Source: a virus | Strand: one strand, 5' to 3' | Virus record (IMG/VR): IMGVR_UViG_3300042906_000531 | Length of the DNA: 40,186 nucleotides | In this document: one piece after another, positions 13,065 through 15,473 of the stretch | Numbering within the stretch: position 1 is the stretch's first letter | Layout: each line of letters opens with the position of its first letter | Position numbers and translations under genes: made by a program | The notes under the pieces: model-generated | Database searches by the model: none | Seen by the model: the letters and a program-made list of their open reading frames with translations, nothing else | What the model was told of the DNA's origin: nothing

Positions 13065-13351
13065 TGAAAGGCCACGACTTCGTCAACAACCTACAGCTTG
13101 CAGGCAAACCACCCAAAGCTGTTTTTATCGACTTTGTTGGAAAGCCAGACGATGATCCGGACTACCCCGTTGTTGTCGTTGAGCCTAAAGACCGAGACTT
13201 TCGATGGGCCAGAGGATTACGGGTGCATGTCAATGGAGGAGATCCCGATCAAGTCCACTCCATCTTGCAAGCTCTAAAAATATGTGCGCCCGCCCGCGTG
13301 ATAGCTAACTACGCCCCCGGTCTTTACTGGGATTCGGAGGTGGACGCATGA
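13064..13351 (+). CDS. Hypothetical protein (95 aa)
   Basis: TAATG coupling to the upstream gene and a 4-nt overlap with the helicase gene. No family recognised. Confidence 0.7.
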
Positions 13352-14265
13352 TTCTCGAGAACCTCGACTACAAAGCGTGGTACGAGCAGATGGAAGCATC
13401 TGTGAAAGTCAGGCCTGCTCAAGATTGTATGGACGACCTCATTGAGGAGATGAGGAATCCGTCGGAAGAGCCGAACATTGTCATGCCGTTTGCAAAACTC
13501 GAAGACAAGTTCACCTACCGCTTAGGTGAGGTCACTGTGCTTGCAGGCCAAAACGGATCTGGCAAAAGCCTTCTCGCGGGACAGATCGCTCTGCACCTGA
13601 TCCATCAAAACCAAAAGGTGGTGATCGCTTCTTTCGAAATGAAGCCGGTTAGGACACTCAAGCGGATGGTGCGTCAGTGGTCGCGGATGTCATTTCCTAC
13701 CTTACAGGCTCACGAGAAGTTCAAGGAATGGGTCAAAGACCGACTATGGTTTTACGATGTACAGGGAACTGTAAGCCCACCTCAAGTTCTAGGAGTCGGT
13801 GTTTACTGCAAGACGATGCTCGGTTGCCAGCATTACTTCATTGATTCCTTAATGAAGTGCGTTCGCGGCGAGGACGATTACAACGCACAGAAGAACTTTA
13901 CAGACGAGCTGTGCGGCCTTGCGAGAGATCAGAATATTCACATTCATTTGGTTCACCATATCAGGAAACAAAGCGATGACAACAAAACACCCTCTAAAAA
14001 CGATCTAAAGGGCTCTGGGAGCGTCGCAGATCAAGTGGACAACGTAATCCTCATGCACAGAAACAAATCGAAGGAGCGTGATTTTGAGGCCAATGGTGTA
14101 GTAGACCATTCCATCCCTGATGCCTTCCTGTCTTTCGAGAAACAACGTAACGGTGAATGGGAGGGAGTGGCGAAACTTTGGTTCGACAGACAGAGCCAGC
14201 AGTACGTTCAGGAAGTTGGGGGATTGCCTACCGATTATCAGCCCAAATCAGCCGACCATCGGTAA
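13348..14265 (+). CDS. DnaB-like replicative helicase (RecA-type C-terminal domain only)
   Basis: Walker A is VLAGQNGSGKSLLAGQ. It is followed by HIHLVHHIRKQSDDNKTPSKNDLKGSGSVADQVDNVILMHRN, typical of the DnaB_C fold. GGAGGTGG RBS. Confidence 0.85.
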   Translation: MILENLDYKAWYEQMEASVKVRPAQDCMDDLIEEMRNPSEEPNIVMPFAKLEDKFTYRLGEVTVLAGQNGSGKSLLAGQIALHLIHQNQKVVIASFEMKPVRTLKRMVRQWSRMSFPTLQAHEKFKEWVKDRLWFYDVQGTVSPPQVLGVGVYCKTMLGCQHYFIDSLMKCVRGEDDYNAQKNFTDELCGLARDQNIHIHLVHHIRKQSDDNKTPSKNDLKGSGSVADQVDNVILMHRNKSKERDFEANGVVDHSIPDAFLSFEKQRNGEWEGVAKLWFDRQSQQYVQEVGGLPTDYQPKSADHR

Positions 14266-14317: not shown

Positions 14318-14455
14318 ATGAATGAACCAACGAAAAAGCTAGCAAAACATCCTAACTGGCCGTTTCAGCAGACGTTAGTAAAAGGCAAGTGGGTTAAGAA
14401 AAAGAAAGTCACGAAGCGCGACATTTTGAAAACCATTGAGGAGGCTTTGTTTTGA
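14318..14455 (+). CDS. Small basic protein (45 aa), not in the ORF track
   Basis: ATG 14318 lies 5 nt after GGAGG. Translation is MNEPTKKLAKHPNWPFQQTLVKGKWVKKKKVTKRDILKTIEEALF. The stop TGA 14453..14455 overlaps the TTG start of the methyltransferase. Confidence 0.55.
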   Translation: MNEPTKKLAKHPNWPFQQTLVKGKWVKKKKVTKRDILKTIEEALF

Positions 14456-15135
14456 ATGAGTTGGCTCTTTTCGCGGGCGCTGGTGGAGGCTTGCTTGCCT
14501 CGCAACTTATCGGGTTTAGGACAATATGCGCTGTTGAGTTGGATGAGTACCGCAGATGCGTTCTCGTCCAGCGACAAAATGATAAACACCTTAGACCCCC
14601 GTTTCCGATATGGGATGACATTTGTACCTTTGACGGCAGACCGTGGAGAGGCCTTGTTGACATCATCACTGGAGGCTTTCCTTGTCAGGCATACAGCACG
14701 GCAGCATCAGGGAAAAATAACGCCGACGATCTTTGGCCGGAAATGCGTCGAGTCGTGGCAGATGTCGCTCCCTCATACGTCTTTGCCGAAAACGTCAGCC
14801 GAGTTGCAATTGACGCGGCAGCAGACGACCTTGAGCAGATGGGTTACAAAACCAAAGCAATTTCCCTTAGCGCGAAAGACGTGGGTGCTGACCACGTTCG
14901 GGAGCGATATTGGCTTCTTGCATACGCCAACAACAAAAGCGAATTACTGCGCCGATTCAATGCAGAAATGGCCTTCATGTGTTGCGTGGAAAAAAACGTT
15001 TGGGAAAGTAACGCCGGAAGCGAGCGAATATCTGATGGGATGGCCTACCGGATGGAGCAACTTGAAGCCATTGGAAATGGACAAGTTCCAGCAGTGGCAG
15101 CAACAGCATTTAATTTATTAAAGGAGAAGATATGA
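14452..15135 (+). CDS. DNA (cytosine-5) methyltransferase, short phage type
   Basis: Motifs: LFAGAGG (I), GGFPCQAYS (IV), ENV (VI), HVRERYWLLA (VIII) and RISDGMAYRMEQLEAIGNGQVPAVA (X). TTG start 6 nt after GAGGAGG. Confidence 0.88.
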   Translation: MNELALFAGAGGGLLASQLIGFRTICAVELDEYRRCVLVQRQNDKHLRPPFPIWDDICTFDGRPWRGLVDIITGGFPCQAYSTAASGKNNADDLWPEMRRVVADVAPSYVFAENVSRVAIDAAADDLEQMGYKTKAISLSAKDVGADHVRERYWLLAYANNKSELLRRFNAEMAFMCCVEKNVWESNAGSERISDGMAYRMEQLEAIGNGQVPAVAATAFNLLKEKI

Positions 15136-15473
15136 ATTACACAGAATTAGTCACTGCACTTGCAAAGCCCGGATGCGACATCCTCGACGATCTCAGCCCG
15201 GATCAAGCCTTTGTTTTGCACATGTCCATCGGAGTCTCTGGGGAGTCTGGGGAACTGTTAGACGCAATCAAGAAGTGGGCGATCTACCAAAAACCCTTAG
15301 ACATCGACAACGTGATTGAGGAGTTGGGCGACATTGAGTTTTACCTTGAGGGCATACGACAAAAGCTCGGCCTTAACCGAAACAGAATTCTTGAGCACAA
15401 CATTGAGAAATTGAGAAGGCGCTACGGCACGAAATACACGAACGAAGCAGCACAAAGGAGAGCTGATAAATGA
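15132..15473 (+). CDS. MazG-like nucleotide pyrophosphohydrolase
   Basis: GVSGESGELLDAIKKW (ExxE) and IEELGDIEFYL (ExxD) are typical of the MazG all-alpha NTP-PPase fold. AAGGAG RBS. Confidence 0.8.
   Translation: MNYTELVTALAKPGCDILDDLSPDQAFVLHMSIGVSGESGELLDAIKKWAIYQKPLDIDNVIEELGDIEFYLEGIRQKLGLNRNRILEHNIEKLRRRYGTKYTNEAAQRRADK

Follow-up and report, generated by a model that had tools for sequence, protein, structure and literature searches.

Two-polypeptide DNA (cytosine-5) methyltransferases are the described systems closest in architecture to the gene reported here. In M.EcoHK31I from Escherichia coli HK31 (Lee, Kam & Shaw 1995), the alpha chain carries motifs I to VIII, the target-recognition domain (TRD) and motif X, and the beta chain carries motif IX (PMC2836561, PMC3404938). 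In these accounts, the beta open reading frame (ORF) lies entirely inside the alpha gene in another frame, activity requires both chains (PMC2836561, PMC3404938), and the 42 N-terminal residues of beta are dispensable (PMC2836561). M.AquI from Agmenellum quadruplicatum (Karreman & de Waard 1990) is described in PMC3404938 as a heterodimer split in the variable region, with one subunit holding motifs I to VIII together with a portion of that region, and beta holding the rest, with half of the TRD, and motifs IX and X. The same sources report artificial splits of M.HhaI, M.BspRI and M.SssI, in which the C5-methyltransferase fold assembles from separate chains (PMC3404938, PMC2836561). Here we analysed a window of 40,186 nucleotides (nt), the IMG/VR virus record IMGVR_UViG_3300042906_000531, which contains a C5-methyltransferase gene that is open in two frames of the same strand, 1 nt out of register. 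The ORF in frame A is called alpha and that in frame A+1 (frame +1) is called beta. The gene probably encodes a two-subunit DNA (cytosine-5) methyltransferase from two fully overlapping frames of a single 684-nt stretch.

The initial annotation of the window had described both frames as open from end to end and both products as methyltransferase-related. This part of its interpretation stood, with ORFs of 227 and 221 amino acids (aa), and with alpha related through the Pfam family PF00145 and beta through single-frame relatives. The four explanations that it left undistinguished (an overprinted second gene, isoforms made by frameshifting, an indel-scrambled ancestor and chance) are weighed below. 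All of the motif coordinates in both frames were exact on recheck, and the last base of beta EYLMGWPTGWS was indeed the first base of alpha QLEAIGNGQVP (15058). The naive chance of such an open frame, given there as 2-3 × 10−5, was recomputed as (61/64)^221 = 2.5 × 10−5. The 663-nt double-open stretch was the window maximum, in line with the claim that this is the longest same-strand alternative-frame ORF outside the low-complexity regions. The runner-up was a stretch of 597 nt (199 codons), an alternative frame at 949-1545 inside the ORF at 888-2876, which is probably the low-complexity or collagen-like region named in the initial annotation. The guanine-cytosine (GC) content of the window was 49%.

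The two-frame state was conserved among the relatives of the gene. Homologues were sampled through alpha only because circularity was to be avoided; 80 IMG/VR loci were picked in this way, and 70 were usable. The initial annotation had raised the question of whether the +1 frame stays open in homologues, and it did so in approximately 68 of these 70 loci, with an ORF that began at an ATG located at alpha codon 2 and reached the end of the gene, over a GC range of 39-64%. The +1 ORF stopped within a few codons of the end of alpha, and its tail always read ...GWTDLKPLEMDKFQxWxxxH. The +2 frame of the homologues contained approximately 14 stops on average. When synonymous codons of alpha were shuffled, preserving the alpha protein and its codon usage, 5.0 frame +1 stops per gene were expected and 0.77 were observed, mostly the terminator of beta itself. 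The shuffles of a copy of the window locus at 99% identity (L013, IMGVR_UViG_3300044626_000330) never reached the observed length of the +1 ORF (0/200). Across 53 loci, 136.8 stops were expected in frame +1 from codon 2 to motif VIII and one was found. From motif VIII to GNGQ, synonymous shuffles of frame +1 predicted 94.5 stops in frame A, where none occurred.

Searches with either chain retrieved very large families. A tblastn search of 50,697 phage records with beta gave full-length, single-piece matches in 19 records at 30-53% identity, from phages of Ralstonia, Pseudomonas, Klebsiella, Salmonella and Vibrio and from uncultured Caudoviricetes, and a match in two pieces in a Microcystis phage (a cyanophage). 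The matches sat in the +1 frame of the annotated methyltransferase. The beta family is thus spread over phages of Proteobacteria and one cyanophage, and a GC-rich contig described below (L094) holds a related +1-frame ORF. The beta profile matched 2225 called proteins; among the 120 best of the listed matches there was no Pfam domain, and those with a name were called 'hypothetical protein'. Beta residues 150-221 matched 2174 clusters at 50% identity (E ≤ 1e-3). The alpha search returned at least 7997 proteins at E ≤ 1e-10, and at 90% identity there were at least approximately 8000 alpha clusters. At the DNA level, the sole match among isolated phages was Ralstonia phage phiRSP, which was 74% identical across the gene's 5' half.

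The frame under selection switched along the gene. When 35 window-like homologues were aligned by codon, the first, second and third codon positions of frame A had nucleotide diversities of 0.31, 0.24 and 0.54 for codons 3-148, the classic signature of frame A. For codons 152-200 the values were 0.52, 0.33 and 0.38, with position 1, the wobble position of frame +1, being the most variable (position 3 minus position 1 = −0.14, 95% confidence interval −0.19 to −0.08), and codons 201-220 were mixed (0.28, 0.21 and 0.41). An OLGenie-style partition was used to derive proxies for each frame that resemble dN/dS, the ratio of non-synonymous to synonymous change. The proxies for frame A and frame +1 were 0.40 and 0.86 in codons 3-148, 0.80 and 0.51 in codons 152-200, and 0.40 and 0.46 in codons 201-220. 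The longer subfamily showed the same frame-switch trend, with 29, 15 and 57% of the substitutions falling on frame A positions 1, 2 and 3 up to motif VIII, and 39, 31 and 30% in the variable region.

The constrained parts of alpha are therefore motifs I-VIII and motif X, the constrained part of beta is its last ~70 residues, and approximately 20 codons are under constraint in both frames (GNGQVP in alpha, PLEMDKFQxW in beta). Codon choice within alpha motif X followed the requirements of beta. The valine of PxVA was encoded by GTG in 48 of 48 cases, compared with a background of 21%, which yields the tryptophan of beta; the proline of QVP was CCA in 75% (background 30%); and the valine of QVP was GTT in 63% (background 38%), which yields the phenylalanine of beta. 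The synonymous sites of alpha motif X are fixed as the F..W residues of beta require.

The start region was also conserved. A nonamer of the form NTG-A-ATG-AG was nearly universal at the gene start. The alpha start codon varied (46 loci with ATG, and 11 each with TTG and GTG), and the beta start was always ATG, 4 nt downstream of the alpha start. The Shine-Dalgarno sequence of the homologues mostly ended 4-5 nt ahead of the start of alpha, or 8-9 nt ahead of the ATG of beta. Two loci with N-terminally extended alphas (L069, MNELYIQRRDGEG-LRELALFAG, and L062) kept NTG-A-ATG-A at the new start; as the arrangement is kept with the extensions, it appears to be selected for beta initiation and not for motif I. 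In the window, positions 14452-14460 read TTGAATGAG, with a further TGA (aTGAg) that ends the third frame. Of 65 loci, 46 had an upstream ORF of at least 40 codons whose stop was one of the two TGAs of the NTGAATGAG nonamer, a pattern suggestive of coupled translation into both starts. The two starts may be fed by termination-reinitiation at the NTGAATGAG junction.

Alpha contained motifs I, IV, VI, VIII and X in one chain, and is a member of the C5-methyltransferase family with predicted activity. PF00145 covered only residues 4-164 of alpha (profile positions 4-167 of 324) and stopped short of motif X; the PF00145 and TIGR00675 matches both ended at approximately residue 164-172, while phrog_363 aligned to residues 1-224. 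No motif IX and no TRD were found between motifs VIII and X of alpha by profiles, AlphaFold2 (AF2) or Foldseek. The spacer between these motifs was approximately 45 residues, weakly constrained, and the AF2 model had a predicted local distance difference test (pLDDT) value below 50 at residues 162-195. Foldseek matched the alpha model to M.HaeIII and M.HhaI (E = 7e-7, probability 1.0) over ~170-180 of 327 columns, i.e., about half. The partial fold match, the absent motif IX and the short spacer together point to a catalytic domain that would lack a recognition domain.

For beta, the conserved core had the consensus HTPTTKANYxAxSMQKWPS...FGxxxPxxxE(W/Y)LMGWPxGW(T/S)DLxPLEMDKFQxW. The beta of the window and those of five relatives had no family in Pfam or NCBIfam, and neither the window beta nor its relatives gave an individually significant match to PF00145. 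Two small stand-alone PHROG families of no assigned function, phrog_26627 and phrog_35493, matched the C-terminus. A PDB sequence search with the beta profile and with a single-frame motif IX-X profile returned nothing meaningful, and Foldseek found no matches for the beta model, as would be expected at a pLDDT of 48. In this AF2 model, residues 1-132 had pLDDT values below 50 and residues 161-190 had values of 76-79, only residues ~161-200 were confident, and helices were placed at 173-181, 187-194 and 208-218. The model is consistent with a core that is the conserved and probably folded part of the protein.

Evidence on the nature of the core came from a profile (A3) in which the motif IX-like string of beta was joined to motif X of alpha. 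This profile retrieved short proteins with both elements in one frame, including P0123 (MNPAWVEWLMGWPIGWT...RVKRLTALGNGQVP), P0124 and P0122 of the same kind, and P0125 (...FVEWMMGFPAGWTEDMTRAQALKALGNAVVP). P0125 aligned to positions 278-317 of 324 of PF00145, the IX-X region (E = 0.007), and the DNA of its locus, L094, encodes in one frame a complete methyltransferase that has all of motifs I to X. Using hhalign against M.HhaI (a sequence identical to PDB 10mh_A), A3 gave a sole hit, which placed beta KVTPEASEYLMGWPTGWSL on residues 273-291, KLHPRECARVMGYPDSYKV, i.e., motif IX (E = 0.096). The resemblance to LMG[FW]PxGW strings preceding GNG.VP that the initial annotation had pointed out was confirmed, as P0123, P0124, P0125, L094 and L096 carry ...EWLMGWPIGWT...RLKAIGNGQVP in one polypeptide. 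Longer relatives had repeated (W/L/F)PTPxAxD units in frame +1, where frame A looks like filler, a sign that beta may hold the recognition module as well. The DNA-recognition module is probably located in the beta core.

The coordinates of the features at the locus are collected in the following table.

Features of the two-frame methyltransferase gene and its start region (positions in the window)
Feature	Position	Strand	Remarks
Upstream 45-aa ORF, beta frame	14318..14455	+	TGA at 14453-14455 shares bases with the alpha TTG and directly precedes the beta ATG
Shine-Dalgarno sequence AGGAGG	14439..14444	+	7 nt before alpha start, 11 nt before beta start
Alpha ORF, frame A	14452..15135	+	TTG start, 227 aa; PF00145 E=4e-23, phrog_363 E=1.5e-51
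Beta ORF, frame A+1	14456..15121	+	ATG start, 221 aa
Predicted N-termini			alpha (M)NELALFAGAGGGLLASQLIGFR; beta (M)SWLFSR
Beta leader, residues 2-148	14459..14898	+	open, sequence nearly unconstrained, predicted disordered
Alpha motif I, FAGAGG (S-adenosylmethionine binding)	14470..14487	+	invariant in homologues
Alpha motif IV, GGFPCQ, catalytic Cys78	14671..14688	+	invariant in homologues
Alpha motif VI, ENV	14788..14796	+	invariant/near-invariant in homologues
Alpha motif VIII, RERYW	14899..14913	+	invariant/near-invariant in homologues
Beta core, residues 149-221	14900..15118	+	HTPTTKANY, KWPS, motif IX-like segment, PLEMDKFQQW tail
Alpha linker, residues 155-194	14914..15033	+	open but weakly constrained, overlaps beta core
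Beta HTPTTKANY	14921..14947	+	
Beta motif IX-like segment VTPEASEYLMGWPTGWS	15008..15058	+	hhalign to M.HhaI; relative P0125
Beta EYLMGWPTGWS	15026..15058	+	
Doubly constrained stretch, alpha DGMAYRMEQLEAIGNGQVP over beta LMGWPTGWSNLKPLEMDKFQQW	15034..15097	+	both selection proxies low
Alpha QLEAIGNGQVP	15058..15090	+	motif X GNGQVP = 15073..15090

The neighbours of the gene were a DnaB-like primase/helicase at 13348-14265 (phrog_5482, phrog_239) and a MazG-like pyrophosphatase at 15132-15473 (phrog_229). No restriction endonuclease was found among the immediate neighbours examined. With none beside the gene, the methyltransferase looks like an orphan in a replication and nucleotide-metabolism module.

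Natural variants of the arrangement were identified among the relatives. In L096 and L098/P0464, alpha ended after motif VIII, and the +1 frame held the PTP module, motif IX and motif X; the +1 frame was open from the gene start in L098 and from the contig edge in L096. L098 (a JGI 3300023548 contig, P0464) also carried, at ~241-1308, an HNH endonuclease motif (HHINHDPRDNRPENIKILCQECHKNTH) in the third frame, as an insertion between motifs IX and X. Past this insertion, motif X was in the beta frame and alpha stopped early. The insertion of a homing endonuclease may have re-phased this gene. In P0468/L097 (46% GC), alpha motifs IV-VIII were followed by a spacer, RLKAVGNAQSP and then a non-overlapping beta core in the same frame (GYVHTPTTMANYTAPSMMKHSCC...AEYLMGLPMG..PLPMKQELFTKW). 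The +1 frame of its alpha had approximately 13 stops, and a second copy had a decayed alpha frame (YWVCAYPNNYG*LH...). The fusion, together with decay in the frames not needed, suggests that the overlap was resolved here by duplication and subfunctionalisation. A search of IMG/VR for further unpacked relatives of P0468 found none. These relatives indicate that motif X, motif IX and the TRD can hop between frames, and that the overlap is resolvable by duplication.

Several further loci departed from the common form. In two Stenotrophomonas phages (L009 and L011), the +1 ORF began only near motif IV, which is consistent with a dispensable leader. In L091 (IMGVR_UViG_2767802241_000002), an indel linked the alpha frame to the beta C-terminus (...WVEWLMGWPIGWTDLKPLAMGKFQKWQEAHLKY*) and motif X was lost from that frame; a natural fusion or mutant would account for this, as would an error of assembly. 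The GC-rich L094 (Logan SRR20363634 contig, 834-2713) looks actinophage-like. It contained a 556-aa ORF with an N-terminal C5-methyltransferase-like domain (DLFAGLEG, SPPCEGFT, ENP), LLPTPT repeats and WPRWGSMHDG, which overlapped, in frame +1, the single-frame methyltransferase (I-X), and only the last 70 aa of the latter were gene-called. Two candidates for a stand-alone beta-core gene were rejected, P0373/L099 as a truncation at the contig edge and P0368/L100 as a recent tandem duplication. In L100 (GCA_003975325.1, RXFL01000006.1, 814-1797), the 3' part of the gene and the start of the next gene were tandemly duplicated, so that GDHIRERHW...LALA*GVSMNTRRTAIWLGSLF appeared twice, in different frames. 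The duplication created a 98-aa ORF with its own AAGGAG-ATG and the beta core at its end.

In the two-subunit enzyme that we consider likely, alpha would provide catalysis through motifs I-VIII, the ~45-residue spacer and the motif X helix. Beta would begin at ATG 14456, served by the same Shine-Dalgarno sequence as alpha and placed right after the stop of the upstream ORF. Its leader of ~150 residues would need only to remain open, and its ~70-residue core would supply motif IX and, probably, the module for DNA recognition. Alpha and beta would assemble into an active enzyme, as in M.EcoHK31I. From the sequence comparisons, we infer that beta is translated from 14456, that it associates with alpha, and that it is needed for activity and specificity. 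The role is presumably that of an orphan phage methylation shielding the genome from host restriction. A number of points weigh against this proposal. The evidence for expression of both chains is evolutionary, and a non-conserved leader of 150 residues is an odd route to a 70-residue module. The assignment of LMGWPxGW to motif IX draws on the two matches given above (E = 0.096 and E = 0.007), each individually weak, together with its position and the single-frame relatives, and when the alpha N-terminus, the beta core and the alpha C-terminus were joined by hand into chimeras, the PF00145 match was not extended to motifs IX and X. The two Stenotrophomonas phages indicate that the 5' start of beta may not be universal. 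Finally, the resolved fusion P0468/L097 is a single 1.66-kb Logan contig (SRR17509919, 628-1533) with a frameshift in alpha near motif I, which could reflect a pseudogene or an assembly error.

The same two-part enzyme could be made with a beta that starts internally, such that only the C-terminal ~70-120 residues are produced and the upstream openness and ATG 14456 are a relic or have another use. This would account for a leader with almost no constraint (proxy 0.86) and with predicted disorder and for the +1 ORFs that begin near motif IV in L009 and L011, and in M.EcoHK31I beta is shorter than alpha, tolerates the loss of 42 N-terminal residues and has usable internal Met codons. We nevertheless consider an internal start unlikely. 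Stops in the leader are strongly avoided (1 against 136.8 expected), a relic would have decayed across this divergence, and the ATG 4 nt past the alpha start is kept in essentially all loci, including the N-terminally extended ones. No internal Shine-Dalgarno sequence or start codon came to notice, although no search aimed at one was made. A further alternative is that beta is a real second protein outside the methyltransferase, e.g., a regulator, an anti-defence factor or a DNA-binding accessory. The lack of a Pfam or NCBIfam family, the conserved tail PLEMDKFQxW without a counterpart in M.HhaI, and the matches of the C-terminus to the functionally unassigned phrog_26627 and phrog_35493 would all fit with this. 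However, alpha is without motif IX and a recognition domain while beta has a motif IX-like string, that string adjoins motif X in the single-frame relatives, beta is fused to alpha in P0468, and the association of the two is strict across thousands of genes, so an unrelated beta appears very unlikely. The overprinted second gene of the initial annotation comes closest in form to the arrangement, but beta did not arise de novo, and the portion of it that is conserved appears to have been displaced from the methyltransferase itself, with motif IX and the probable recognition module. De novo overprinting does not fit, as the beta core has in-frame homologues in the C-termini of single-frame methyltransferases and in a non-overlapping fusion, and as the family is spread over phages of Proteobacteria and a cyanophage.

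Equally slight is the probability that we give to a single chain made by recoding, read in frame A through motif VIII, then by a +1 shift through PTP...LMGWPxGW, and by a −1 shift at ~15058 into motif X. The A/+1/A pattern of selection and the exact abutment at 15058 fit with it, and the resulting chimeras resemble canonical C5-methyltransferases. A frameshift product is disfavoured since neither frame closes in the stretches where selection acts on the other alone, exactly where recoding would not need openness and two full-length products would. The beta ATG is conserved, the beta tail PLEMDKFQxW lies past the supposed −1 site and is yet under selection, the beta core of L097 follows motif X instead of lying between VIII and X, and a gene with two efficient programmed shifts would have no known precedent. 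Inspection of the two junctions by eye (14914-14925 and 15050-15062) showed no X_XXY_YYZ heptamer, zero-frame stop or homopolymer, although no systematic search was made. The isoforms by a −1 slip that the initial annotation had raised are disfavoured by the same observations (stops of 1 against 136.8 and 0 against 94.5 expected, and no slippery site evident). Chance, composition, or a sequencing or assembly indel artefact can be given next to no weight. GC-rich DNA does yield long alternative-frame ORFs, but the arrangement is kept in loci from 39 to 64% GC, the shuffle controls exclude it, and independent assemblies supplied the 2225 proteins that are beta-like and the at least 7997 that are alpha-like. 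Conservation, shuffles and stop counts together removed chance from the initial list; sequencing indels were ruled out by the conservation, and compositional bias by the shuffles and by the homologous alpha of L097 with its stop-filled +1 frame. An indel-scrambled ancestor, by itself, fails to explain the active maintenance of both frames.

The annotation of this family is incomplete. RefSeq/PGAP annotates alpha only. Among the phage records in which beta is called, some name it 'hypothetical protein' (as in Ralstonia phage Gerry) and some 'methyltransferase', and PHROGs places the +1-frame proteins in phrog_1008 ('DNA methyltransferase') and in two families of unassigned function. With no Pfam or NCBIfam model for beta, thousands of beta subunits would be absent or mislabelled in annotation, and specificity prediction from alpha alone is probably wrong. 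A broader reading can be proposed tentatively, with slightly less than even confidence. End-to-end dual coding may be the normal state of a very large family of phage and prophage C5-methyltransferases, with ribosomes choosing between starts 4 nt apart and the true DNA-recognition determinants lying in the unannotated +1 frame, and M.EcoHK31I may be one sampled member of a general, evolvable architecture. A same-strand overlap of 663 nt (up to ~900 nt in relatives) that takes in nearly all of both ORFs and is kept in thousands of genomes would rank with the longest and best-supported cases of dual coding in bacterial viruses. Its rationale would be that the two subunits of an enzyme are co-inherited and co-expressed automatically. 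Motif X in either frame, a frame-changing HNH insertion, a tandem duplication and a resolved fusion would be natural intermediates for its origin and resolution. Minimal heterodimeric C5-methyltransferases could also provide scaffolds for targeted methylation, a use already made of M.EcoHK31I.

A literature search found no paper on this phage family, on its second frame, or on relevant frameshifting in methyltransferase genes. The proposed enzyme resembles M.EcoHK31I as a two-polypeptide C5-methyltransferase whose second ORF lies inside the gene, on the same strand and in the other frame, and whose alpha in the window has motifs I-VIII and X but not IX. The likeness is one of architecture, the two having been compared by published description. 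The alpha chain of M.EcoHK31I is approximately 309 aa long. The window alpha is much shorter (227 aa), with an unconstrained spacer of ~45 residues in the place of the TRD, and since the alpha of M.EcoHK31I is reported to hold its TRD there, the recognition module of the window enzyme is probably in beta. The second ORF of the window also extends over the entire gene, the two starts being 4 nt apart and served by a single Shine-Dalgarno sequence, and the window encodes an orphan phage enzyme from a family of thousands, not part of a restriction-modification pair. The M.AquI division has a likeness in L096 and L098/P0464, which have the TRD, IX and X in the beta frame, but overlapping. In M.AquI the motifs are divided in sequence, its description in PMC3404938 mentions no end-to-end overlapping frames, and in the window motif X stays in alpha. 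The complementing fragments of M.HhaI, M.BspRI and M.SssI differ in that the splits are artificial and involve no overlap of coding frames. The classical same-strand phage overlaps are phiX174 B within A and E within D, and lambda Rz1 within Rz; these pairs encode unrelated proteins, and the embedded one is usually de novo. The window shares with them an out-of-frame embedded ORF and dual constraint on the same nucleotides, whereas its two frames would code for parts of a single ancestral enzyme that complement each other, and the overlap extends over ~100% of both ORFs (663 nt).

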